Shown here: piece after piece, positions 6,710 to 21,352 of the stretch
How positions within the stretch are numbered: the stretch's first letter is position 1
How the letters are laid out: each line of letters opens with the position of its first letter
NCBI RefSeq assembly: GCF_028368995.1
Contig: NZ_JAQNDL010000001.1
Span: 2,624,001 to 2,688,000, forward strand
Reading direction: 5' to 3'
Length of the DNA stretch: 64,000 nt
Source of the DNA: Nannocystis bainbridge
Lineage (GTDB): Bacteria > Myxococcota_A > Polyangia > Nannocystales > Nannocystaceae
The notes under the pieces: model-generated
Seen by the model: the letters and a program-made list of their open reading frames with translations, nothing else
Databases searched by the model: none
Told to the model about the DNA's origin: nothing
Translations under genes and position numbers: made by a program

Positions 6710-8380
6710 GTGTTGCGTCACCCGGTCATCGCCGGCGTCGCCGAGCTGCTGGCCGGCCAGGACGTGCAGGCCGCGCTGCACGAGGGTCAGCGCGCGGGCA
6801 CCTACCCCACCGATGTCGTCGCCGCGCTGCGGCGGATCGGCGTCGCTCGCCTTTTCACCGACGAGGCCGAGGTGTTCCACCTCTGCGGCCTCAACGCGAT
6901 CGCGGCGGCCGTCGACGGTTCGCTGGCGATCACCCTCGGCGTCAACGCCCTCGCGCTGTTGCCCGTGCACCTCGGCGCCAGCCCCGAGCTGCGCGCCCGC
7001 ACCTTCAAAAAGATCAACGACGGCGCGTTCGCGGCGATGCTGCTGACCGAGCTCGATCACGGCTCCAACCTGCTGCGCAACGAGGCCGCCGCCGCGCCGC
7101 ACCCCGAGGGCGGCTACCGCCTGACCGGCGAGAAGCACCTCATCAACGGCGCCACCCGCCACGACGTGCTCGTCTCGTTGATGCGGACCGCCCGCGGCGG
7201 CGCGGTCGCGTTCGGCGACTTCTCGGTGTTCTGCGTCGACCGCGACGACAGCGTCGAGGCCCTGCCGCGCTGGTCGACCCTGCCGGCGCGCGCGGCCGAC
7301 ATCGCCGGGGTCCGGTTCCACGGCACACATGTCCCCGAGGACAGCCTCGTCGGCAAGCTCGGCGACGGCTTCAGCCTGGTCCAGCGCACCCTCACCCTGT
7401 CGCGCGGCGGGATCAGCGGGCTCGCGTCCGGCTGCGCCTCGGGGGCGCTGGCGCTGGCGCTGCACTACGCCCACACCCGCGACGTCTACGGCGCCCCGAT
7501 CGTCGGCCTCGACGCGATCGCCGATCACCTCGTCGTGCACGCCGAGCTCGACCTCGTCGCCGCGGCGATGGCGGTCAAGGCCGCGGTGGCCGCCAACGCG
7601 CTCGGCATCGGCGCGGCGATCTACACCGCCGCGGCCAAGCTGGCCTGCTGCGCCCTGGCCGAGGAGGCGGTCGAGCAGGGCCGCCGCGTCGTCTCGAGTC
7701 GCGCGCTGCTGGCCGATCGCCCTTATGAGAAGTTCGTCCGCGACGTCACCCTCTACGGGGTGTTCGACGGCACCAGCCACCTGATGCTGACCGACCTGAG
7801 CCTGCGCCTGCCGCAGATCGTCAAGGCCCGCGACGAGGTCGAGCCGACGCTGCCGCGGGTCGCCGCGATGTTCGCCGCGCCCCCGCGTCCGCTCGCGGCG
7901 CTCGGCGACGCGCGTGCCCCGGTGCGTCACCTCGATCTTTCGGCCCATGCCCGGGCCCTCGACGCGATCGACGGCGGCGTCGGCTTCACCGCCTTCGTCG
8001 CCCTCGCCGACGCCGTCGTCGCCCTCGGCCGCGGCCTCCGCGGGCACAAGGCGTGGAACGACCAGGGCGTGCGGTTCGCCCTCGCCGAGGCGCTGGCGTG
8101 GATCGAGTGCGCCTTCGCCACGGCCGAGCTGGCCGACCCGGCCCGGCGCGCGGCCCTCGGCGCGCCCGCCTTGCCTTCGGGACAGGCTGTCCCGCGGGAC
8201 ATCCTCGTCGGCGCCCTCGCCGGCCTCGGCCTGCGCGCCCGCGCCCGCCTGCTCGAGGTCACCGCGCTCGCCGGCCTGCCTGTCCCGACGGACATGTCGC
8301 AGGTCGAGGCCGACCTCGTGGCCGCCCGCGCCGCCGCCCGCCCGGGCGCGCGCGCGTGGGTCCGCGCCCTGACCCCGTGA
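6710..8380 (+). CDS. Acyl-CoA dehydrogenase family protein
   Basis: LLTELDHGSN, YRLTGEKHLING, LVGKLGDGF, R-VYGAPI, VRD--LYGVFDGT; start placed at GTG 6710. Confidence 0.88.
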   Translation: MLRHPVIAGVAELLAGQDVQAALHEGQRAGTYPTDVVAALRRIGVARLFTDEAEVFHLCGLNAIAAAVDGSLAITLGVNALALLPVHLGASPELRARTFKKINDGAFAAMLLTELDHGSNLLRNEAAAAPHPEGGYRLTGEKHLINGATRHDVLVSLMRTARGGAVAFGDFSVFCVDRDDSVEALPRWSTLPARAADIAGVRFHGTHVPEDSLVGKLGDGFSLVQRTLTLSRGGISGLASGCASGALALALHYAHTRDVYGAPIVGLDAIADHLVVHAELDLVAAAMAVKAAVAANALGIGAAIYTAAAKLACCALAEEAVEQGRRVVSSRALLADRPYEKFVRDVTLYGVFDGTSHLMLTDLSLRLPQIVKARDEVEPTLPRVAAMFAAPPRPLAALGDARAPVRHLDLSAHARALDAIDGGVGFTAFVALADAVVALGRGLRGHKAWNDQGVRFALAEALAWIECAFATAELADPARRAALGAPALPSGQAVPRDILVGALAGLGLRARARLLEVTALAGLPVPTDMSQVEADLVAARAAARPGARAWVRALTP

Positions 8381-8602
8381 CGCCGCTCGCGGCCTCGGGC
8401 TGACCTGTCCCTGCGGACAGCTACCACTGCGCTCCCGCGCCGCCCTCCCGCGCGATCGGCCCCGCCGCCCTGCGCACACTGTGCGGCCCCTCGGGTTAGC
8501 TGTCGCTATTCCGGTGTGACTTCCATGAAGCGACTGAGCGACTGCTGCCGCGGCCTGCGACGGCGCGGCCGTCCGGCCCGTGGTAGCGTCGTCGCCGCGA
8601 CG

Positions 8603-9535
8603 ATGCACTACCGACTCGAGCACCGGCGGCCCATCGACACCGCGATCGCGCAGCTGCGCTTCTCGCCCGACGGCGAGCGCCTGGCGCTGCTGACCGGCGA
8701 CAAGAAGAACAGCGTGCAGCTGCTGCAGTGCAGCGACCTCGCGCCGCTCGGGGCCCCGCGCTTCCTCCGTCACGACCTCGCCTTCGCCGGCGACGGCGCG
8801 CTGTTCGTCGCCGGTAAGACCATCCAGCGCCACGAGCTCGCCGAGGCCGGCGTCGGCAAGGCGACCCTCTCGATCGACGGCGACAAGAAGGGCCTCACGC
8901 AGATCGCCGCCTCGCCCGACGGCCGCTGGCTGGCGCTGCACAAGCACCTCGACGATCTCGAGCTGTGGTACCTCGGCGATGCGCAGCCGACCCGGCGCGC
9001 CAGCGTGCGCGCCAGCGTGCTCGTCGAGCTCGGCTTCCGGCCCGACAGCGGCCAGCTATGGTTCACCAGCCGGGTCTCGAGCCCGCTCCAGCTGCAGACG
9101 ATCGACCTCGATCCGGCCGGCTCCGATCTACGACCGACGCCGATCCGGCCGCTGCCCGGGGTGTTCGTCTACAGCCCCGTGCGCGCGGCCCCGGGCGGCC
9201 TCGTGGCCGTGAGCGACCAGCACGCCGACCTCGTGCTGCTCGAATGGGGCGCCGCCGAGCCGCGCCCGCTCGGCCTGCGCGCGCTGTGGGGCGACCGCTT
9301 CCCCGAGGACCTGGCCGTCTCGCCCGACGGCAGCCACGTCGCAGTCACCGCCCGCGACTCCGACACCCACCTGCGCGTCAGCGCGGCCGCCCTCGCCGGC
9401 GACGCCGAGCCGTTCACGTTCCGCTGGGAGGGCCGGACCACCAGCACCGCGGTGGCCCTGACCGCCGGCGGCGCCCGCCTGGCCGTGGCCCGCCGCACCT
9501 CGCCGAGCACGCTCTACATGTTTTTAAAGACATGA
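8603..9535 (+). CDS. WD40/beta-propeller repeat protein
   Basis: Repeated LRFSPDGERLA, IAASPDGRWLA, LGFRPDSGQL, LAVSPDGSHVA blades. Confidence 0.8.
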   Translation: MHYRLEHRRPIDTAIAQLRFSPDGERLALLTGDKKNSVQLLQCSDLAPLGAPRFLRHDLAFAGDGALFVAGKTIQRHELAEAGVGKATLSIDGDKKGLTQIAASPDGRWLALHKHLDDLELWYLGDAQPTRRASVRASVLVELGFRPDSGQLWFTSRVSSPLQLQTIDLDPAGSDLRPTPIRPLPGVFVYSPVRAAPGGLVAVSDQHADLVLLEWGAAEPRPLGLRALWGDRFPEDLAVSPDGSHVAVTARDSDTHLRVSAAALAGDAEPFTFRWEGRTTSTAVALTAGGARLAVARRTSPSTLYMFLKT

Positions 9536-12194: not shown

Positions 12195-12602
12195 TCAGCT
12201 CCGCGGCCCGTCGTAAACCTGGACGCTGACGCGGATCTGCCCCGAGTTGTCCTCGTGGTTCGAGTCCCAATAATAAAACAGCAGCGTGCCCTCGGTCAGG
12301 ATCGTCATGCTCAGGTGGGTGCCGACGCCGAAGAACGTGGCGCCGCCGTCGAGGCTGCCGACCAGCGCGCCGTACAAGAACGCCTGGGCGCCGCGGCCGA
12401 ACAGCCCGTAGTCGCCGCCCAGCGGGTTGCCGAGGCCGTTCGCGTTCGAGGTCCGGTCGGCCACGCCGGCGCTCCACGTGTCCTCGGGATCGACGTGGAT
12501 CACCAGCAGCTGCCCCGGCGACAGCGCGATCGCGGTGTCGAGGGCGGCCCCGCCCGAGATGCTGTGCTTCCTCGCGTCCACCACGAATGCGCCCTGCGCC
12601 AT
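12195..12602 (-). CDS. LecA/PA-IL-like beta-sandwich lectin
   Basis: 135 aa; DTxIxL..GQ..W....ANG, YGALVGSL, FxVG, GTLLFYYWDSNHEDNSG. Confidence 0.65.
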   Translation of the reverse strand: MAQGAFVVDARKHSISGGAALDTAIALSPGQLLVIHVDPEDTWSAGVADRTSNANGLGNPLGGDYGLFGRGAQAFLYGALVGSLDGGATFFGVGTHLSMTILTEGTLLFYYWDSNHEDNSGQIRVSVQVYDGPRS

Positions 12603-12776
12603 GAACCCCTCCCGACCCTGCGGTCGTCGCGGTTCGTGGACCGGGACCTCGCGACCGTCAAGCCGGCCTCGCGTCGCGCCCGGCGAACGCCGACCCGGCG
12701 CGCGCGAGCCGTCGCCGCCGCGCGGCTCGGCGGCGTGCGGGGCCGCCGTGACGCGCACGAGCGCGCGCCGACGACA

Positions 12777-12824
12777 TGTCCCGCAGGACATGTGATGCGC
12801 AGTTACGACCTGTCCCGCGGGACA
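12777..12824. repeat. Two perfect TGTCC-N4-GGACA palindromes
   Basis: 12777-12790 and 12811-12824, just downstream of the hydrolase stop. Confidence 0.9.
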
Positions 12825-12837
12825 GGCCGCCGCGGCG

Positions 12838-13665
12838 TCACGCCGCCTCGTCTTCCAGCAGGCGGAAGTTGCGGCGGGCCAGCTCGAGGTTGTCGTTGTC
12901 CCACGGGTGGAAGCTCGGGCGCAGGTACTCGCGCAGCCCGCGGAGGAACACCCGGCGGATGATCGGCTCGCGCTGCTGCGTCGCTCGCAGCTGGCGCAGC
13001 GCCTCGCGCAGGCTCAGGTCCTTCTCCTGGCGCATCAGCATCACCGCGCCCGCCAGCCAGAACGCCCCCAGCAGCGTCGTCGCCAGCGCCATCCCGGCCA
13101 TCCGCAGCGCATAGCTCGGGCGCACCTGCTTCAGCACGTCGAAGGCCACCGCCTTGTGCTCGATCTCCTCGGCCGCGTGCCAGCGGAGCAGCCGCTGCAT
13201 CTTCGGGTGCACCACCGCCAGCGTGCCCTGGTCCGTCAGCGCCCCCTCGGCCATGATCGCCGTGTAGTGCTCGAGCGCCGCCGTCACCGACAGGCGCAGC
13301 GCCGGCGGGCTGATGCGCTCGATGAAGTCGAACGCCACGCGCTTGTACACCCGCAGGAACGTGTCGATGTCGTAGCCCTGGCCGCGCAAGATCTCGAACA
13401 CGCGCTCGTGCTCGTGCGCGTGGCGGCCCTCCTGGCCGAAGAACCCGCGGATCTGCTCGCGCAGCGTCGGGTCGTCGATCGCGCCCATGTAGTGGCGGAC
13501 GGCCCGCACGAAGAAGCGCTCGCCCATCGGGAAGATCAGGTGCAGCGCGTTGCCGATGGCCGTCGACACCGGCAGCCCGGCCATCCAGTGGCGCGGCAGA
13601 TCGTCGAGGTCGAATTCCATCGCTCGCGGCTTGATGGGTCCCAGGTCGGCGGGGGCGTGCTGCAT
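12838..13665 (-). CDS. Predicted metal-dependent hydrolase (COG3687-type)
   Basis: FPMGERFFVRAV, FFGQEGRHAHEH, ALEHYTA, WHAAEEIEHKAVAFDV. Confidence 0.9.
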   Translation of the reverse strand: MQHAPADLGPIKPRAMEFDLDDLPRHWMAGLPVSTAIGNALHLIFPMGERFFVRAVRHYMGAIDDPTLREQIRGFFGQEGRHAHEHERVFEILRGQGYDIDTFLRVYKRVAFDFIERISPPALRLSVTAALEHYTAIMAEGALTDQGTLAVVHPKMQRLLRWHAAEEIEHKAVAFDVLKQVRPSYALRMAGMALATTLLGAFWLAGAVMLMRQEKDLSLREALRQLRATQQREPIIRRVFLRGLREYLRPSFHPWDNDNLELARRNFRLLEDEAA

Positions 13666-13782: not shown

Positions 13783-15168
13783 TCAGTCGTCGAAGGTCGG
13801 ATGCACGATCCACAGGCTCGGCCAGAGCGACGGTTCGACCCGCGCGAGGTCGACGGACGGATCGATCATCAACTGCGGCCTGCGCCCGTTGAGCGACACC
13901 AGCGCGACCACGCGGACCTCGATCGCCGCGTGCCCGCGCGCCCGCAGGTCGTCGGCGAGGAAGCGGGCGTACTGCAGGATCATCTCTGGCCGGCCGCTCA
14001 TCTCCTGGCGCTGCCAGCCCGGCAGACGTCCGGCCAGGTCGATCTTCCACGACGCGCCGAGCTCGGGATCACTGGCGAAGAAGCGGACGTAGCCGTTCTT
14101 GTCGCGCAGCTTCATGCGCCACGCGAACTTGTGGCCCTCCTCGGTCCACGCCACGTCGCCCGGATAAAGCCAGTGGCGCAGCGGGAACAGCAGCTGCCAG
14201 CCGACATAAAGCCCCAGGGCCACCAGCGTCGCCCGCTGCGCGCGCCCGAGGTGAGCCGGCGGACCGGCGACGATCGGCGCCGGCGACGGCGGCGCGCCGA
14301 CGCGGGCCGCGACGCGGTTCCACAGCCGGCGCGGCCAGTCCGGTTCGAAGAAGATCGTGGTCGCCGCGATCATCACCCACGGGAAGATGCCGATCGAGAA
14401 CACCGCCGCGTTGATCAGGTGGAAGCTCAGCGCCAGCACGTAGGCGAGCGCGCGCGTCGGTCGCCACAGCAGCGCCGGCACCACCAGCAGATCGAACCCG
14501 AGCCCGCCCCAGCTGAAGAAGTACGGCGCCCACCACTCGCGCAGCAGCGGCCCGGCGAGCGGCAGGTCGGCGCTCTCGGCCAGCCACGTGCGCATCGGCT
14601 CGCCGCGCAGCCAGTCGGGGTTCAGCTTGGCCAGCCCGGCGTAGAAGTACGGGATCCCGATCTGCGCCCGCAGCAGCCACAGCGCCCACGCCGGGGCCGT
14701 ATCGGCGCGCAGCCGCGGCCGCAGCCAGGCGTCGACCGACGCGGCCCGGTGCGCCGGCACGAACATCATCAAGAAGCTGACCAGCGCCAGCAGATAGATG
14801 TGATTGAGGTAACAGCTCTGCTCGAGCAGGAACACGTACGAGATGCCGACGAAGAACACCGCCGCGGCCGTGCGGTACCACAGCCCGATCGTCACGCACA
14901 GCGCCGCCAGCCCGAGCACCCCGAACACCACGTGCATGCCGTCGCCGGCGAGCGGCCGCACCCAGTCGAGGGCGAAGAACGTGAAGTGGAACTCCGGCTC
15001 GATGTAGAGCGGGCCGATGTCGGGCAGGTCGCGCCACACCTCGACGAACATCAGGAGGCCGAACAGCACCCGGAAGCACGCCAGCGAGGCGATGTCGACG
15101 GTGGCGAACAGCCGGCGCGAGGCGAGCGGCAACAGCGAGGCGACGGGCCTGGGCATGGCCGGCGGCAT
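13783..15168 (-). CDS. HTTM-domain vitamin K-dependent gamma-carboxylase-like protein
   Basis: DIASLACFRVLFG, YLNHIYL, YFYAGLAKLNPDW, FHLIN..F.IGIFP, WTEEGHKFAWRMKL, P-MILQYA, SLNGR..Q.MIDP.VDL. Confidence 0.9.
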   Translation of the reverse strand: MPPAMPRPVASLLPLASRRLFATVDIASLACFRVLFGLLMFVEVWRDLPDIGPLYIEPEFHFTFFALDWVRPLAGDGMHVVFGVLGLAALCVTIGLWYRTAAAVFFVGISYVFLLEQSCYLNHIYLLALVSFLMMFVPAHRAASVDAWLRPRLRADTAPAWALWLLRAQIGIPYFYAGLAKLNPDWLRGEPMRTWLAESADLPLAGPLLREWWAPYFFSWGGLGFDLLVVPALLWRPTRALAYVLALSFHLINAAVFSIGIFPWVMIAATTIFFEPDWPRRLWNRVAARVGAPPSPAPIVAGPPAHLGRAQRATLVALGLYVGWQLLFPLRHWLYPGDVAWTEEGHKFAWRMKLRDKNGYVRFFASDPELGASWKIDLAGRLPGWQRQEMSGRPEMILQYARFLADDLRARGHAAIEVRVVALVSLNGRRPQLMIDPSVDLARVEPSLWPSLWIVHPTFDD

Positions 15169-15403
15169 AGCGCCGATCGTCGGCGACGCAGCCCGCCCGC
15201 TCCGCGCCCGCCCTCGCGCGCGTACATCCTCGCCTTCGCGCCCGCGCGAGCTGCCCGGCGGGGCCGCCATCCGAGCGAGCGTCCGCCGAATGCTCGCTCG
15301 CCTGGTGCCATGATTCGCGACTGAGCCCGCTTGATGCCGCCCTCGACCCGACGCATAGAAGCTACCGGTCCGCCACTGGCAAATGGGTGGAGGAGGAGTT
15401 GTC

Positions 15404-15772
15404 ATGCGAATGAGAATCAACGAATACACCTGGATTCATACGACGATCTTCGCGCTCGCGGCCGCATTCGCGACGACCGCGTGCGACGAGACTGAGGCGA
15501 TCGACGAGGAGGCGCTGGCCGTCGAGCCGGTCGACGAAGACGAACCCGAGGCGGGTCAGGTCGACGGCCAGACGGTCGACGAGCTGACCGACGACGAGGA
15601 GGAGGTCAGCGCCGACGAGGAGCGCCGCCGCGGGCACGACGACGACGACGGCTGGGGCCGCCGGCGTCACGGCCACGACGACGACGACGGCTGGGGCCGT
15701 CGGCGCCGCCACGACGACGACGGCTGGGGCCGCCGCCGCCACGGCGGTCGCGACGGGTGGGGTCGCCACTAG
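15404..15772 (+). CDS. Acidic lipoprotein/precursor peptide with repeated HDDDDGWG-RRR cores
   Basis: Strong SD AGGAGGAG at 15391-15398; signal peptide with lipobox TTAC; Glu/Asp-rich linker; four GWG-R repeats. Confidence 0.85.
   Translation: MRMRINEYTWIHTTIFALAAAFATTACDETEAIDEEALAVEPVDEDEPEAGQVDGQTVDELTDDEEEVSADEERRRGHDDDDGWGRRRHGHDDDDGWGRRRRHDDDGWGRRRHGGRDGWGRH
15635..15769 (+). repeat. Coding tandem repeat (CAC GAC GAC GAC [GAC] GGC TGG GGC CGx CGx CGx)
   Basis: Three near-perfect units plus one degenerate unit. Confidence 0.9.
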
Positions 15773-15847
15773 ACGAACGCTGCGGCCGACCGCGCCCGCG
15801 ATCTCCATCGCGGGCGCGGCCGGCCGTCGCCTCGTCGGAGACACCGC

Positions 15848-16360
15848 ATGATCCTCCGGACCCGCATCTTGCTGCTCGGCGCCGCCGCCTTCCACCTCGC
15901 GCTCGTCGTGCTCGGCGGGCTCGGCTTCTGCCTGTGGGGCGCCGGCCCGCTCGGGCCGCTCTTGACGTATTACGCCGCGCTGACCGGGGCCGACAGCGGC
16001 TACGGTTTCTACGCGCCCTCGGTCGGCGACCCGCCGACCCTGACGCTGACGATCGTCGACGACGAAGGCCGCGCCCGCCTCGAGAGCCTCGCGCCGCGGA
16101 TCACCCGCGAGGCCGACATCCGCGTCGAGGACCTCATCGAGGTGTTCCACAACCGCCGCATCGACGAGGCCGTGCGCGCCCGCCTGGCCGCCTCGTGGGC
16201 CGCGGAGCTGTTCTCGCGCCACCCGTCGGCGCGCAGCGTCACCGTCGACATGGGCTTTCATCGCGTGCCCTCGCTGGTGGCCGCCAGCCGCGGCGCCCCC
16301 ACCCGCTGGCGCTCGGTCTACCGGGCCCGCGTGGTCCGCCCGGGCGGAGGTGAACCATGA
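15848..16360 (+). CDS. SdpA/DUF5819-like HTTM-partner protein
   Basis: 170 aa with N-terminal hydrophobic anchor and YGFYAP motif (compare W.FFAP); its stop overlaps the next start (ATGA). Confidence 0.6.
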   Translation: MILRTRILLLGAAAFHLALVVLGGLGFCLWGAGPLGPLLTYYAALTGADSGYGFYAPSVGDPPTLTLTIVDDEGRARLESLAPRITREADIRVEDLIEVFHNRRIDEAVRARLAASWAAELFSRHPSARSVTVDMGFHRVPSLVAASRGAPTRWRSVYRARVVRPGGGEP

Positions 16361-17340
16361 AGGCTCGACTTCACGCGCTCGCCCGCGCGGTCGATCGCTT
16401 CTGCTTCGCGCCCGCGCGCCCGGCCCCGCTGGTGGCCCTGCGCATCGGCCTCGCGGCGGTCCTGCTGGCCCAGGCGCTGCAGATCGCGCCGCTCTATCAC
16501 GCGCTCTATCACCACCGCGGCCTGCTGCGCGGCCCGCTCAAGGACAGCTTCGTGTCCGGCCACCTGCCGCGGCTCGGCGAGCTGCTGGCGTCGCCGTTCG
16601 AGTCGCAGGTCCTGGCGGTCCTCGGCGCGCTCTACGTCGCCAGCCTGGTCGGCATGCTGCTCGGCTGGCGCACCCGCGCCAGCACCTGCGCCGCCTGGCT
16701 GCTGCACTTCGTGTTCATGCGCCTGGCCCCGCACACCAACTACGGCGCCGACGACTTCGCCAACATCTTCCTGTTCTATTCGACCGTCGCCCCCGGCGGC
16801 GCCGCGCTGTCGCTCGACCGGCGGGCCGGTCGGGCGCATGACCTCCCGACCGCCGGCACGCGCCTGGCGATCCGCGTGATGCAGCTCCACCTCTGTCTCG
16901 CCTATCTGCTGTCCGGCCTGGAAAAGGCGCTCGGGCAGCAATGGCGTGACGGCGAGGCGATCTGGCGCTCGCTCGTGGCCCAGGGCTACGCGCTGCTGGA
17001 CTTCACCTGGCTGGCCCACGTGCCGTGGCTGGCGACCGTGGCCGGCTGGTCGGTGCTGGTCGTCGAGATCGGCTACGCGGTGTTTGTCTGGCCGGCGGTC
17101 ACGCGCCGCGGGTGGGTGGCCGCGGTCGCGGCGATGCACGCCGGCATCGGGGTCTTCATGGGCCTCCACGTGTTCGCGGGCGTGATGATCGTCCTGACGG
17201 TGTCGATGTTCGGGATCAGCGCAGAGCCCGCTAAATCCGTCGGAGAACTTCGAAATCGGCCGCGCGACTTCTTGCCCGCGCCGGCCGCGTCTTCGGGTAC
17301 CGTGGACCGTGGCCAGGGCGCCCCGCCGCGAACCGGATGA
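16357..17340 (+). CDS. HTTM-domain membrane protein (SdpB-like)
   Basis: LVALRIGL, LLGWRTR, YGADD, ALSLD, MQLHLCLAYLLSGLEK..G..WRDG, EIGY, MHAGIGVFMGL. Confidence 0.85.
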   Translation: MKARLHALARAVDRFCFAPARPAPLVALRIGLAAVLLAQALQIAPLYHALYHHRGLLRGPLKDSFVSGHLPRLGELLASPFESQVLAVLGALYVASLVGMLLGWRTRASTCAAWLLHFVFMRLAPHTNYGADDFANIFLFYSTVAPGGAALSLDRRAGRAHDLPTAGTRLAIRVMQLHLCLAYLLSGLEKALGQQWRDGEAIWRSLVAQGYALLDFTWLAHVPWLATVAGWSVLVVEIGYAVFVWPAVTRRGWVAAVAAMHAGIGVFMGLHVFAGVMIVLTVSMFGISAEPAKSVGELRNRPRDFLPAPAASSGTVDRGQGAPPRTG

Positions 17341-17938
17341 GACCCGCGAACGCGCGCGGCTGCAGGTCGACGAGCGTCGGGCCCAGCTCGTCGCGCTGGG
17401 CCTGCGCCTGTTCAGCGAGCGCAGCTACGACGAGCTGTCGATCGACGACATCGCCAGCGCGGCCGGGATCTCCAAGGGGCTGCTCTATCACTATTTCTCG
17501 AGCAAGCGCGATTTCTACGCCGCGACCGTGCGCAGCGCCGCCGAGTCGCTGCTCGCCCGCACCGACCCGGCCGGGCACGGCCCCGACCCCGAGGCGCTGC
17601 TGGCCGCGCTCGACCAATATCTACAGTTCGCCGAGGAGCACGCCAGCGCCTACGTGGCCCTGATGCGCAGCGGCGTCGGCCACGACGCCGAGGTCGCGGC
17701 GATCGTCGAGGACACGCGCGCCCGCTTCGTCGCCCGCCTGGCCGGCCGCCTCGGCCTGTCCGAGATGCCGCCGCGCGTGCGCCTGGCCCTGCGCGGGTGG
17801 GTCGGCTGCGTCGAGGGCTCGAGCCTCGACTGGCTGGCTCGCCGCGACCTCCCCCGCGAAGATCTGCGCGACCTGCTGGCGCAGCTGCTGCTCGCCACGC
17901 TGATGGCCGTCGAAGCCACCCCGCAAGCGGCCGAGTGA
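17309..17938 (+). CDS. TetR/AcrR family regulator
   Basis: RRAQLVALGLRLFSERSYDELSIDDIASAAGISKGLLYHYFSSK. Confidence 0.93.
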   Translation: MARAPRREPDETRERARLQVDERRAQLVALGLRLFSERSYDELSIDDIASAAGISKGLLYHYFSSKRDFYAATVRSAAESLLARTDPAGHGPDPEALLAALDQYLQFAEEHASAYVALMRSGVGHDAEVAAIVEDTRARFVARLAGRLGLSEMPPRVRLALRGWVGCVEGSSLDWLARRDLPREDLRDLLAQLLLATLMAVEATPQAAE

Positions 17939-18096: not shown

Positions 18097-18444
18097 TCAA
18101 TCGCGCTCGCCGAAGCAGCGGTGCTCGACCCCGCCGCGGCCGCGACAGAACTGCTTCGCGCGCCGGACGCAGAGGTCGCGGTTGCCCCGGATACGGACCT
18201 TGTCGGTCACTCGGTGATAGCGATTGCCGCGCTCGCAGCGGGCCAGGCAGTAGCCGCGCACGTGGAAATCGTCGTCGTCGTAACACTCCCACCGCGAGGC
18301 CTCGCTCGGGTCCACCTCGTCGGTGAACTCGTCGATCGAGACGTCGGCCAGGGCGGCCGCCGCCTCTTCGGCCAGCGCCTCGACCGGCTGCTCGGGCGCC
18401 GCAAGAGCGGCCCACGCACTGAACAGTGCATTGAAAATCATCAT
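18097..18444 (-). CDS. Small secreted pre-pro Cys-rich (6 Cys) cationic peptide
   Basis: SD GAGAGGAG; short hydrophobic N-terminus, acidic pro-region, Arg-rich C-terminal domain with six Cys. Confidence 0.75.
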   Translation of the reverse strand: MMIFNALFSAWAALAAPEQPVEALAEEAAAALADVSIDEFTDEVDPSEASRWECYDDDDFHVRGYCLARCERGNRYHRVTDKVRIRGNRDLCVRRAKQFCRGRGGVEHRCFGERD

Positions 18445-18623
18445 GACACCTTCTCCTCTCACGATCGAATGTTCGCATCCACGCGCAACGTGGCACCCGT
18501 CGCGTCCAATGCGACGGGTGCCGGGAACCATGAGCCTGGTCCGCGCCGCCGTCGAGCAGGCTCTGCCGCGAAATTATGCGCCGGGCGGGCCGCCCGCGGC
18601 GGGCGGGCGGCAGTATGTACATA

Positions 18624-18686: not shown

Positions 18687-21266
18687 TCAGCGCTCGCGGT
18701 CGCGCCGCGCCAGCACCACCGCCGCGATGCCGACGCACAGCGCCGTGTACGCCAGCAGCACGCCCCAGACCTCGAGCACGTGCGCGGTCGAGGGGTCGTA
18801 ATCGACGGTCGGGTAGACGGGGCAGCTCAGCGGGTTGCCGGGGATCGTGCAAGCGGCGAAGTCCCGCGGCGGCTGCAAATGGGTGACCGAGCCGAACGCC
18901 TCCATGGCCCAGCGCGCGCTGGTGACGTACGACAGCGGCGCGAGCCCGGCCGGCAAGGACACCAGCGCCATCGCCAGCAGCAGCTGCGGCACGAGCACCA
19001 GCGGCACCACGCTCATCGCCCGGTCGGAGGTCGTCGAGGTGCTCGACAGCAGGAGGCCCATGCCGAGCCCCGACAGAGAGCTCAAGAAGGTGGTGACCAG
19101 CAGGCTGCCGAAGAACCCCAGCCCCGCGACCCCGCGCACCACCGACACCGGCCCGTTCGCGGTGAAGGTCGTCACCGCCGCCGAGAAGTCGACCTTGGCC
19201 GCCAGCACCGTCAGCAGCACGATCGACTGCACGAGGCAGATCGCCGCCAGCACCACGAACTTGGCCAGCAGGTACGGGCCGATCCGCAGGTTCGCCAGCC
19301 GCTCGCGGCGGTAGATGGCCCGCTCTTTGGTCAGCTCGCGCGCCGAGCACAGGATCCCGCACCACACCGCGACCAGGGCGACGAGGAACAGCACCAGGCG
19401 CCCGTGCGAGCTCTGGAGGTCCTGCAGCGCGCCCTGGCGAGCCACGAGCACCAGGATCGCGCCGATGATCGGGGCCTGCAGCAGCAAGGTCGCCAGGTTG
19501 CGCCGGTCGACCGCCAGCAGCCGAATGTTGCGGCGGACCAGGATCACCCACTGCTGCCACGCCGACACCCGCGCCGTCTCCGGCCGGTCCTCCGGCGTGG
19601 TGCCGCCGACCTTCATCGCCGTCATCGTCATCGACGACCGGCTCTGCGTGCTGTGCAGCTTGCTCGGCTTGACCGCGGGCCCGCGCGCCTCGCCGGCCAG
19701 ACGCTCGACGATGTAGCGCGTGCGGGCGTCCGAGCGGCGGAACCGCAGCTCCCACAGCTCGGCCAGCGACGGCTCGCCGCGCTCGTGGGCCTCGCGCCAG
19801 CGGGCGTACTCGCTGCGCAGCTCGCCGAGCACCAGCGGGTGCGACTCGTGGGCGTCGCCCTCGACCTTGGTGTAGATGTCGGCGAAGTCGCCGCTGCGGA
19901 CCCCGAAGTGCTGCAGCGCCTCGGCCGGCGGCCCGAACCACACCAGCCGCGCGTCGGCCATGAACGCGATGTGATCGCATTGATGGATGTTGGCGGTCGC
20001 GTGGGTGACCATCACGATCGTGCGCCCGCCGTCGGCCAGCCGGCGCAGCGTGTACATCAGCCGCTTCTCGAGCCCGGGGTCGAGCCCCGAGGTCGGCTCG
20101 TCGAGGAAGAACAGGCTCGGGTCGGCCAGCAGCTCGGCGGCGATCGAGACCCGCTTGCGCTGGCCGCCCGACAGCTGGCTGATGCGCGTGGTCCGGCGGT
20201 CTTCGATGTCGACGTCGGCCAGCACCCGCTCGACCCGCGCCGCGATCTCGGCGTCGCCGGTGTCCTCGGGCAGGCGCAGCTGGGCGGTGAAGCGCAGCGC
20301 CTCGTCGACGGTGAGCGTCTGGTGGAGGATGTCGCTCTGCGGGACGTAGCCGACCTGGCCGCGGTAGGCGGCGAAGTTCGCGTAGTAGTCGTCGCCGTTG
20401 ACCAGCACGTCGCCCTCGCTGGCCCGGCTGAAGCCCGACAGCGCGCCGAGCAGCGTCGACTTGCCCGCGCCCGAGCCGCCGACGATCGCCACGAACTCGC
20501 GCGGCAAGATCGCCAGCGACACGCGGTCGAGGATCACCTTGCCGCCGCCGACCACCCGCACGAGCCGCCGCGCCTTGAGCTCGATCGCCCCGCGGTGGTC
20601 GTACGAATCGAGCGAGCGCCCGTCGTAGGCCAGCTTGAACGGCCCCACCTGAATGATGTCACCACGCGCCAGCTTCTTGCTGAGCTGGACCCGCTCGCCG
20701 TTGACGAAGGTGCCGTTGGCGCTGCCGAGGTCGCGCACCTCGTGGCCATCCGCCAATGCCCGTACGGTCGCGTGCCGCCGCGACACCAGCAAGCTCGCCA
20801 GCGTCAGCTCGCAGCCCTCGCGGCCGATCGTGACCTCGGGCTGGTCGAGCCGACAGCGCGGCACCGACTCGTCCGGCGGCGCCATCGTCCGCGCCAGCCG
20901 CTGGTAGGTCATCGTCACGAAGCTGCCGGTGTACGGATCGCCGACCCGCAGCACGTCGCCGTGGCGCAGCTCGTGCTCGGACACCTGGTGTCCGTTGAAC
21001 ATCAGGCTGCACGGCCCGCCGAGGTCGCGGACGCGATAGCCGTCACCGACGCCGGTCGGCTCGAACCGCAGCTGATGCGCCGCGACGAACTCGGCCTTGA
21101 CGACGATCCGGTTGTCGTCGGCGCGACCGAGGCGGAACGGCTTGCCGTCGAGCGGGTACGGCACCTCGCGCTTGTTCGGCTCGCGCACCACCAGCCGCGA
21201 CGCTTGCAGCCGCACGGCCCAGGTCACTTCCGGCGACGGTTCGTCGCTGTCGGGCGTCAGCTCCAC
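18687..21266 (-). CDS. FHA-domain ABC transporter (2xFHA + ATPase + ABC-2 membrane), Rv1747-like
   Basis: FHA motifs (IGR..VSRRHA..DLGSANGTFVNG); Walker A GGSGAGKS, LSGGQRKR, LDEPTSGLD; C-terminal TM domain; start uncertain (GTG 21266). Confidence 0.93.
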   Translation of the reverse strand: MELTPDSDEPSPEVTWAVRLQASRLVVREPNKREVPYPLDGKPFRLGRADDNRIVVKAEFVAAHQLRFEPTGVGDGYRVRDLGGPCSLMFNGHQVSEHELRHGDVLRVGDPYTGSFVTMTYQRLARTMAPPDESVPRCRLDQPEVTIGREGCELTLASLLVSRRHATVRALADGHEVRDLGSANGTFVNGERVQLSKKLARGDIIQVGPFKLAYDGRSLDSYDHRGAIELKARRLVRVVGGGKVILDRVSLAILPREFVAIVGGSGAGKSTLLGALSGFSRASEGDVLVNGDDYYANFAAYRGQVGYVPQSDILHQTLTVDEALRFTAQLRLPEDTGDAEIAARVERVLADVDIEDRRTTRISQLSGGQRKRVSIAAELLADPSLFFLDEPTSGLDPGLEKRLMYTLRRLADGGRTIVMVTHATANIHQCDHIAFMADARLVWFGPPAEALQHFGVRSGDFADIYTKVEGDAHESHPLVLGELRSEYARWREAHERGEPSLAELWELRFRRSDARTRYIVERLAGEARGPAVKPSKLHSTQSRSSMTMTAMKVGGTTPEDRPETARVSAWQQWVILVRRNIRLLAVDRRNLATLLLQAPIIGAILVLVARQGALQDLQSSHGRLVLFLVALVAVWCGILCSARELTKERAIYRRERLANLRIGPYLLAKFVVLAAICLVQSIVLLTVLAAKVDFSAAVTTFTANGPVSVVRGVAGLGFFGSLLVTTFLSSLSGLGMGLLLSSTSTTSDRAMSVVPLVLVPQLLLAMALVSLPAGLAPLSYVTSARWAMEAFGSVTHLQPPRDFAACTIPGNPLSCPVYPTVDYDPSTAHVLEVWGVLLAYTALCVGIAAVVLARRDRER

Positions 21267-21352
21267 GCAAGCCTTGTATTTGCAGGATCCAGCCGGCACC
21301 CGCGAATGTCAACGTTTCTGGGCAATTTCCCCACGATGTGTATGCTTGGGGC

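Follow-up and report, generated by a model that had tools for sequence, protein, structure and literature searches.

A conserved three-gene cassette in Nannocystis bainbridge and other bacteria encodes a predicted split GGCX-like membrane enzyme and an exported candidate substrate

To our knowledge, relatives of the vitamin K-dependent carboxylase (GGCX) are common in bacteria, and almost none of them has a known substrate. According to the available text of PMC12647623, Lys218 acts as general base in GGCX, where Phe299 stacks against CO2. In the sdpABC and yitPOM operons, a small protein and a protein with an HTTM domain are needed to mature a Sec-exported precursor, whose N-terminal part is conserved and whose C-terminal payload varies (accessible sections of PMC6818787). 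A protein of the DUF5819 family and an adjacent HTTM protein are predicted to form a bacterial split GGCX-like complex, with an interface score (ipSAE) of 0.806, in the part of the preprint at hand (bioRxiv 10.64898/2026.08.19.745780). The locus described here lies in 64,000 nucleotides of Nannocystis bainbridge DNA (contig NZ_JAQNDL010000001.1, positions 2,624,001 to 2,688,000; hereafter the window, in which all coordinates are given) and consists of three consecutive genes for a small exported protein, a 170-aa single-pass membrane protein termed p170 and a 327-aa protein termed the HTTM core. We judge it somewhat better than an even bet that the HTTM core and p170 form a split, probably menaquinone-dependent GGCX-like enzyme that matures the exported neighbour protein.

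The four genes that a preliminary description of the window had flagged were all confirmed at their coordinates, both in the list of open reading frames (ORFs) and in the sequence. Three of them run on the plus strand: the gene for the 122-aa exported protein, a candidate precursor or substrate (15404–15772), is preceded by a strong ribosome-binding site, GGAGGAGG, and is followed by the gene for p170 (15848–16360) and by the HTTM-core gene (16357–17340). The start codon of the last overlaps the p170 stop codon as ATGA, which bears out the translational coupling that had been described. The fourth gene, on the minus strand (13783–15168), encodes a full-length protein of the GGCX type, here called the VKGC-like protein, and is separated from the precursor gene by a divergent intergenic region of 235 bp (15169–15403). 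The window has a G+C content of 72%, the host genome comprises 11.05 Mb in five contigs, and the nearest relatives of the window proteins are found in Nannocystis.

An alignment of 20 HTTM-core homologues retrieved 175 relatives from contigs of one genome per species; the 80 best of these were analysed together with 8 kb of flanking sequence in either direction. In 79 of these 80 loci, from at least six phyla, a p170 gene lies directly upstream of the HTTM homologue, only locus L060 being without one; 69 of the p170 genes were found by tblastn, nine by a motif-based ORF search and that of L065 by reading the sequence. The cassette occurs in Nannocystis, Sorangium, Byssovorax, Minicystis, other Myxococcota and a Bdellovibrionaceae metagenome-assembled genome (MAG), and further in Chitinophaga, Aquimarina, Pedobacter, Saprospiraceae, Planctomycetia, Verrucomicrobiota, Ignavibacteria and other MAGs. 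Conservation of the neighbourhood, which the preliminary description had named as a check, was thereby found for the three genes. That description had also treated the whole gene set as a maturation system; the exported protein, the small protein and the HTTM core are indeed conserved together, but the VKGC-like gene does not belong to the unit and adjoins it in only 4 of the 80 loci. All-against-all clustering of the flanking ORFs of the 80 loci revealed no broadly shared neighbour beyond the three genes.

Three further observations were made on these loci. The next most frequent neighbour is a gene for a protein of about 409 aa with a signal-peptide-like start, which lies some 2.6 kb upstream of the HTTM gene in 15 of the 80 loci (14 from Sorangium and one other; e.g. 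L037:5364–6593). In Nannocystis pusilla Na p29 (L016:8001–8974), the HTTM-core match falls into two tblastn pieces, 8001–8369 and 8372–8974, which suggests a frameshift or a sequencing error. A 4.4-kb contig from an Amaricoccus sp. MAG (L017) carries a p170–HTTM pair 55–68% identical to the Nannocystis pair and a Gly/Trp/His/Asp repeat region cut by the contig end, and its assignment to an alphaproteobacterial bin looks doubtful.

The HTTM core has the membrane fold of GGCX. The Pfam HTTM model PF05090 gave no match to the 327-aa protein at E ≤ 10 and missed it in a genome-wide scan as well, though a PF05090 match is precomputed for 85 of the 120 listed relatives (manual count). Alignment of profiles by hhalign linked the protein to the neighbouring VKGC-like protein with E 2.6e-5 and a probability of 74.8%. 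Its AlphaFold2 (AF2) model, with a mean predicted local distance difference test score (pLDDT) of 79.6, retrieved 15 human GGCX chains in Foldseek at E 5.6e-6 to 7.1e-5, with query-normalised template modelling scores of 0.56–0.64 over 274–325 columns, and the next unrelated match was at E 0.43. An HTTM profile searched against the sequences of the PDB returned no match at E ≤ 1. The claim of a second HTTM protein beside the VKGC-like one is upheld by the fold, the profile alignment and the annotation of relatives.

Residue equivalences were established by chaining two alignments, the HTTM core to the VKGC-like protein and the VKGC-like protein to human GGCX. They place K190 opposite Lys218, H261 opposite His287, I264 opposite Asn290 and F273 opposite Phe299, with W196 in the region of W223. 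All 20 HTTM-core sequences aligned have K190, W196, H261 and F273, and H178 is invariant as well. On these alignments K190 is the predicted equivalent of the catalytic lysine, and a quinol-oxygenation half-reaction of the HTTM core appears well supported by residue conservation, while γ-carboxylation by the putative cassette enzyme is neither supported nor excluded. In the host genome, two genes with the PF02621 domain (MqnA/MqnD, futalosine route) and four with a VKOR domain exceed their family cut-offs among menaquinone-related models, which makes a quinone cofactor plausible, and the menA model remains below its cut-off.

The partner protein p170 belongs to a large family that carries no name. 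The small protein with a YGFYAP motif of the preliminary description corresponds to this ORF, in which the motif occupies residues 52–57. The AF2 model (pLDDT 88.5) shows a helix at residues 2–24, the motif loop and then a β-β-α-α-β-β domain; the N-terminal transmembrane helix carries a nearly invariant His16, and the domain should face the periplasm, judging by the Arg residues that precede the helix (positive-inside rule). No Pfam or NCBIfam model matched p170, even at a relaxed E ≤ 10. A search with a profile of the family returned 1,200 cluster representatives at E ≤ 0.001, of which 726 remain at a threshold of 1e-10 and 237 at 1e-30, and almost all of them are 150–200 aa long; the 32 matches in a database of named proteins are all called "hypothetical protein", and the ESM Atlas likewise gave only unnamed "hypothetical protein" clusters. 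Fused forms of 337–2000 aa were sought and none was found, which is weak evidence. Foldseek with the p170 model gave no match at E ≤ 0.001, and the best VIA-align hit (Z 4.8) lies on the N-terminal helix. Homology to T-fold proteins (dihydroneopterin aldolase and urate oxidase, Z 3.3–3.7) was considered and rejected, the weak similarity being read as a common β-β-α-α-β-β arrangement.

The pair had been described as SdpAB-like, with DUF5819 as a further family to be checked by hidden Markov model (HMM), and neither assignment held. The SdpA model PF17418 and the DUF5819 model PF19136 matched none of 26 p170 family members at E ≤ 1 and none of 60 representatives at E ≤ 0.01. Scanned against the genome, PF17418 touched only two unrelated weak places at E ≤ 10, neither of them p170, and PF19136 five weak places at E ≤ 1, none at p170. 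The SdpB model TIGR04033 scored the HTTM core at 21.2 bits (E 1.9e-4; 20.6 bits in the genome scan) against a cut-off of 178.4.

Binding of p170 to the HTTM core is predicted with confidence. Three runs of complex prediction gave ipSAE values of 0.88, 0.89 and 0.89, against 0.00 for the best of three controls, with at least 97% agreement of contacts between runs and a pLDDT of 82 for the partner. In the predicted complex, residues 13–21 of p170 contact residues 170–181 of the HTTM core, beside the invariant H178, and residues 50–62, which include the YGFYAP loop, contact residues 185–209, which include the invariant K190 and W196.

The gene upstream of p170 encodes an exported protein at almost every locus, although not of one family. 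In the window, the product has a signal peptide that ends in FATTAC, with Cys at the predicted cleavage site; the lipobox is non-canonical, with Thr at −3. After the signal peptide come 52 residues of which 23 are Asp or Glu, followed by four (H)DDDGWGRRR(R) units, and the gene contains a DNA tandem repeat with a period of 33–39. The Glu/Asp-rich lipopeptide of the preliminary description is thus sound as to export and acidity, and its lipidation, given the Thr at −3, is no more than plausible. Homologues of the acidic precursor lie directly upstream of the p170 gene in all five Nannocystis loci, including one that lacks the VKGC-like gene (L015).

A protein with a signal peptide occupies this position in 47 loci here called Myxococcota-type and in 28 others. 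The former comprise 5 Nannocystis and 37 Sorangium loci, Byssovorax (L032), two "Proteobacteria" MAGs (L055 and L056) and a Bdellovibrionaceae MAG (L062), with L058 and L059 as looser members. Their upstream products, of 80–150 aa, share one plan: a signal peptide with an AxA-type site, a motif immediately after it, a short linker and a tandem-repeat tail. The strict motif-plus-repeat expression identified 37 of the 47 precursors, and ten were recognised by eye (the five from Nannocystis, L021, L032, L050, L051 and L062). The motif has the consensus [TV]P[IV]x[DE]LxL[VI][EA]E, typically AASTTPIQDLALVEETS in Sorangium and AIDEE(D/A)LAVE in Nannocystis; the window precursor reads AIDEEALAVE, for which TTPIQDLALVEET is the Sorangium counterpart. 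A motif expression matched 46 of the 47 precursors, and the remaining one (L016) reads AIDERELAVES. The repeat units include PAAGYYR, HHG, HHHHG, GWHG/HWHG, YRPYGH, FGYRPYGG, FPRFQ and GHGYYGGHHG, in addition to (HGHW)n and the Nannocystis unit (H)DDDGWGRRR. Beyond the motif, the 47 products are rich in His and Gly (19% each), followed by Arg (9%), Tyr (8.6%), Pro (7.9%) and Trp (4.5%); Cys is absent and Lys very rare. Arg pairs or triplets (RR, RRR) flank the repeats, many precursors terminate in R or RR, and a second conserved element, approximately LPTPVVSLxxxxR, closes 21 of the 47. The long Glu/Asp-rich linker is confined to the Nannocystis precursors among these 47, and the acidic stretch, presented earlier as the key feature, is therefore a peculiarity of that genus; what is found family-wide is the short N-terminal motif and the aromatic/His/Gly/Arg repeats.

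At the other 28 loci, a secreted protein of 132–349 aa with a DPxxYx[IL]-type element lies upstream of p170, and these proteins fall into phmmer clusters of 21, 6 and 1. Three proteins in this position carry 3 to about 11 Asn-rich copies unlike the myxobacterial repeats, of the form (A)GTNSNINIF(R/K) or ASTVNNNNIFKT: (AGTNSNINIFR)n in a Planctomycetota MAG (L087:6373–7422) and in Pedobacter (L068:6950–7405), and (ASTVNNNNIFKT)n in a Riflebacteria MAG (L072:5019–5519).

None of 16 precursor-position proteins tested belongs to a curated Pfam or NCBIfam family. Compositional matches below threshold were obtained to HxsA4 (His-Xaa-Ser repeat; 31.9 bits against a cut-off of 55) and to the ZrgA zinc-uptake model, and the match of the Collagen model to an (HHG)n tract (27.7 bits, gathering score 27.2) was set aside as compositional. 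Secreted low-complexity proteins with (HHG)n, (GWHG)n, (PAAGYYR)n and (YRPYGH)n repeats, the precursors of Sorangium, form a class not described before.

A maximum likelihood tree was constructed from 44 HTTM cores of the 47 Myxococcota-type loci, L015 and L030 being excluded because the range translated contained a stop codon, and L016 being left out. It contains five Sorangium paralog clades with 97–100% support, each with 5–10 Sorangium species and exactly one repeat class. The repeat-class labels require 6 changes on the tree, the minimum possible, against a mean of 29 when shuffled, and up to four cassettes of different classes are found in one genome (e.g. L021, L035, L040 and L050 in So ce375). 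The repeat type is thus inherited together with the enzyme lineage, and the five single-class clades imply that duplication of the cassette predates the diversification of Sorangium and that each enzyme lineage kept its own repeat type.

The spacer between the precursor and p170 genes in the window forms a very stable RNA hairpin (15772–15836, plus strand), with a minimum free energy of −54.7 kcal/mol over 15765–15850, a z of −6.43 and none of 200 shuffles as stable. Equivalent spacers at the 47 loci span 58–269 nt and have a median z of −1.9 against mononucleotide shuffles, with 22 of 47 below −2 and 12 of 47 below −3, so that a structured spacer appears to be only a tendency across loci. A precursor–hairpin–enzyme layout is found in many peptide operons, and the cassette resembles it. 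A promoter and terminator scan of 15100–17500 found nothing, but it used a sigma-70-like consensus that is uninformative for this kind of organism.

The three-gene architecture fits a precursor with a two-protein membrane maturation machine on the periplasmic side. The mechanism proposed is as follows. The HTTM core and p170 would together make up a membrane enzyme of two subunits, amounting to a split vitamin K-dependent carboxylase, in which the transmembrane helix of p170 packs on the HTTM core and the YGFYAP loop reaches the region of the putative catalytic lysine K190. We infer from gene order that the small upstream protein is the substrate; it would be exported by Sec, recognised through the short motif after its signal peptide and matured at the outer face of the inner membrane. 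Chemistry of the GGCX type is most likely: K190 would deprotonate menaquinol, oxygenation would then generate a strong base, and this base would activate a C–H bond of the substrate. The outcome may be carboxylation of Glu residues in the conserved motif or another base-driven change in the repeat tail, and the hypervariable His/Gly/Tyr/Trp/Arg tail may be the functional payload, for example in metal or mineral binding or in antimicrobial activity. The periplasmic, menaquinone-dependent maturation route that had been suggested for four genes is a reasonable reading for three of them.

Several points weigh against this proposal. The HTTM core has no lumenal domain (no PF22777 match) and no equivalent of GGCX residues 374–418, and it has Ile at the Asn290 position; giant-virus homologues with the same truncation and Ile at 290 are interpreted, in the accessible portion of PMC13486548, as epoxidases without carboxylase activity. 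No relation in sequence or fold to the lumenal domain of GGCX, to SdpA or to DUF5819 was detectable for p170. The ipSAE mark of the predicted complex is reached by 116 of 157 solved complexes and by 2 of 215 mismatched pairs, counts that are only a rough calibration here because the complex was scored with custom-built, unpaired alignments. It is gene order alone that points to the substrate relation; the proteins encoded upstream do not belong to a single homologous family in all phyla, and the EE motif is confined to Myxococcota-type loci, so that a single shared modification site is not evident. Relatives in the tree share labels, and the repeat-class pattern therefore demonstrates stable linkage and is not proof of co-evolution. 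Finally, two HTTM genes 700 bp apart are unlikely by chance (about 0.02, as estimated below), so that a functional link to the VKGC-like gene within Nannocystis retains some likelihood.

The most specific form of the proposal would be a first bacterial system of γ-carboxyglutamate (Gla) proteins, and we regard it as a long shot. In it, the split enzyme would carboxylate the LALVEE sequence near the new N terminus of Sec-exported proteins, creating an anchor to calcium, metal or a surface for the tail, and in Nannocystis the adjacent VKGC-like protein might additionally carboxylate the acidic linker. If true, Sorangium would hold five enzyme–substrate lineages, and in Bacteroidota, Planctomycetota and Verrucomicrobiota exported proteins of other kinds would be substrates of this split enzyme.

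Of the explanations that depart from GGCX-type modification, one in which the p170–HTTM pair serves as a scaffold, a chaperone or a factor for processing or export, the role first attributed to SdpAB, and yields a secreted antimicrobial or signalling peptide with no vitamin K chemistry, survives best, and it too is improbable. The role of SdpAB in SDP production is mechanistically undefined in the available parts of PMC6818787, and the HTTM proteins of linaridin clusters have no established mechanism in those of PMC9927463. The missing lumenal domain and Asn290 equivalent of the HTTM core would agree with such a role, and the RR/RRR flanks and R/RR ends of the precursors could mark protease sites that release repeat units. 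However, the invariance of K190, W196, H261 and F273 across 20 diverse sequences is hard to reconcile with a non-catalytic scaffold, and the cassette has neither a protease nor a transporter gene conserved beside it, the neighbour of about 409 aa at 15 of the 80 loci not having been scanned.

Slightly less probable still is an arrangement in which the small protein is no substrate at all but a periplasmic metal-binding or buffering protein that accompanies a quinone-linked redox module of p170 and the HTTM core, with no covalent modification. Tails such as (HHG)n, (HHHHG)n and (HGHW)n have a classic metal-binding composition, one precursor has the sub-threshold matches to the His-Xaa-Ser repeat and ZrgA models, and outside Myxococcota the upstream proteins, of 135–280 aa, look folded rather than peptide-like. 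Set against these features, the repeats of other lineages are free of His, as in (PAAGYYR)n, (FPRFQ)n and (AGTNSNINIFR)n; the conserved part of the Myxococcota-type precursors is a short, recognition-like N-terminal motif, with a tail that is free to vary; and the known systems of an HTTM protein with a small partner, Sdp and Yit, mature an exported precursor (PMC6818787, available sections).

The remaining alternative was that of the preliminary description, in which all four genes make up a single pathway and the acidic exported peptide is the target of both HTTM enzymes, the VKGC-like protein carboxylating its many Glu/Asp residues and the p170–HTTM pair processing it. The VKGC-like protein itself is as had been described, a full-length protein with both the lysine and the lumenal domain. 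Its minus-strand ORF spans 13783–15429, the conserved part beginning at the ATG at 15168, and it matches the Pfam models HTTM (E 3.7e-89) and VKGC_lumenal_dom (PF22777; E 9.3e-40). Against human GGCX (E 3e-47), AGLAKL stands opposite AGVKKL, which makes its lysine the equivalent of K218. Lys218, Asp263, Asn290 and Phe299 all have identical counterparts (numbering mapped by hand from the alignment), and with the lumenal domain these make it the better candidate carboxylase. The genome holds four full-length VKGC-like paralogs, this one included, and VKGC-like proteins are present in 46 of 201 sampled Myxococcota genomes. As a side observation, the four VKOR-domain genes (L134–L137) equal in number the four full-length VKGC-like genes (L001, L002 and L004 among the loci), which may be coincidence.

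By tblastn, the VKGC-like gene adjoins the cassette in four loci, all from close Nannocystis relatives (L012, L013, L014 and L016), and is absent from the other 76. In these four, the four genes are syntenic with a common 235-bp divergent control region, and both the adjacency and the Glu/Asp-rich linker are restricted to Nannocystis. Adjacency of two HTTM-type genes by chance has a probability of about 0.02 (about 11 such genes in 11.05 Mb, or about 55 pairs × 4 kb / 11 Mb). Yet the metal-dependent hydrolase gene, the TetR-family gene and two further flanking genes are likewise found only in these four loci (tblastn), where every gene is 78–94% identical and in the same order; the whole region is syntenic, and shared ancestry alone would produce such an adjacency. 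In N. radixulma (L015), the acidic precursor, p170 and the HTTM core are present with no VKGC-like gene within 8 kb. Conversely, no p170, HTTM-core or hydrolase gene lies within 1.5 kb at any of 29 other Myxococcota VKGC-like loci or of the 3 paralogs in the host genome. A pathway with two HTTM enzymes is therefore not supported outside Nannocystis, and we hold it to be the least probable of the alternatives, although the VKGC-like protein may have a genus-specific role on the Glu/Asp-rich linker. As far as gene neighbourhoods tell, the VKGC-like gene is a GGCX-type paralog in its own right, which in the genus Nannocystis happens to lie next to the cassette and is not a conserved member of it.

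Other genes of the window lie around this region. The hydrolase gene (12838–13665, minus strand) belongs to PF10118 (Metal_hydrol) by Pfam, and it was ruled out as an operon partner of the VKGC-like gene, occurring within 1.5 kb of none of the 32 other VKGC-like loci. Directly downstream of the HTTM core lies the TetR-family regulator (17309–17938, plus strand; Pfam TetR_N 3.6e-16, TetR_C_46 4.2e-19), whose start codon is uncertain and which may overlap the 3′ end of the HTTM-core gene; it stands next to the cassette only in L012, L013, L014 and L016, a link limited to Nannocystis. An ORF of 144 aa (18097–18531, minus strand), near the VKGC-like gene, has a signal-peptide-like start, a Glu/Asp-rich acidic stretch and a Cys-rich C-terminal part; it is 67–77% identical in four Nannocystis relatives and has no Pfam or NCBIfam family. 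Another, of 198 aa (12195–12791, minus strand), is 78–86% identical in Nannocystis relatives, also with no Pfam or NCBIfam match, and its C-terminal half may resemble lectins of the PA-IL/LecA type. From its translation, an 870-aa ORF (18687–21299, minus strand) seems to begin with an FHA-type N terminus and to continue with an ABC ATPase (GGSGAGKST) and a membrane domain. Elsewhere in the host genome, a second HTTM-type cluster was noted (L133, G000:C1:4286500–4296500), in which the HTTM model weakly matches an 854-aa protein (E 0.0037) and the DUF5819 model weakly matches a 316-aa one (E 2.5e-4); the gene of the latter overlaps by a few bases a 595-aa ORF weakly touched by the SdpB model, and an FGE-sulfatase-domain protein lies beside them.

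A full-text literature search on HTTM, SdpA/SdpB, ribosomally synthesized and post-translationally modified peptides and bacterial GGCX returned no description of the cassette, of p170 or of the repeat proteins, its coverage leaving out most subscription journals and the supplements of the DUF5819 preprint. The cassette adds a third, unannotated family of small HTTM partner subunits, with 1,200 cluster representatives, and offers hundreds of natural pairs of enzyme and candidate substrate with a common recognition-like motif and very different payloads, through which the question of what bacterial HTTM enzymes do to proteins becomes directly testable.

In function, the cassette is closest to sdpABC and yitPOM of Bacillus subtilis and is also close to the DUF5819–HTTM pair, although by their defining models it is a member of neither. 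With the former it shares, as far as the accessible sections of PMC6818787 describe them, a partner of about 160–170 aa (SdpA/YitP), an HTTM-only protein of about 320 aa (SdpB/YitO), a precursor with a signal peptide (SdpC/YitM), precursor paralogs that are conserved in the N-terminal part and diverge in the C-terminal payload, and several paralogous operons per species group. It differs in gene order, which is precursor–partner–HTTM rather than A–B–C, in the lack of a PF17418 match and a TIGR04033 score near the cut-off, and in having no evident immunity gene. Its payload is a hydrophilic aromatic/His/Gly/Arg repeat without Cys, whereas the Sdp-type toxin is hydrophobic and disulfide-bonded.

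The likeness to the DUF5819–HTTM pair, taken from the accessible part of the preprint, lies in adjacent genes, in a confidently predicted heterodimer (0.806 there and 0.89 for p170 and the HTTM core), and in a hydrophobic or aromatic partner pair that contacts the quinone-pocket region in both predictions. The Lys/Trp/Phe residues, at 189/195/273 there, are at 190/196/273 in the cassette HTTM core, and p170 too has an N-terminal transmembrane helix and an extracytoplasmic domain predicted to bind near the quinone pocket. Unlike that pair, p170 is not DUF5819 by HMM and the HTTM core has no DCC1-like C-terminal domain, and the same part of the preprint names no substrate, whereas the cassette has a conserved upstream exported candidate (bioRxiv 10.64898/2026.08.19.745780).

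From GGCX, the HTTM core retains the membrane fold, the Lys218, His287 and Phe299 equivalents and an active side toward the extracytoplasmic compartment, where the exported partner arrives. The Asn290 position is Ile, as in the epoxidase-like giant-virus homologues (available text of PMC13486548). The cassette enzyme is moreover split and lacks the lumenal domain and the 374–418 region, which are required for carboxylation in GGCX, and its candidate substrates have no propeptide or Gla-domain signature. In linaridin biosynthesis, the HTTM protein works with a small partner protein. The clusters of the LinG/CypH type resemble the cassette in having an HTTM-domain membrane protein of undefined mechanism in a ribosomal-peptide cluster (PMC9927463, as far as its text was accessible). 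They differ from it in their leader-peptide precursors, which have no Sec signals, and in carrying hydrolase, decarboxylase or methyltransferase genes, which are absent at the cassette. The overall plan, in which an HTTM protein is joined by a small partner and an exported precursor, is known; the cassette adds to it a partner family and a class of candidate substrates that had not been described.

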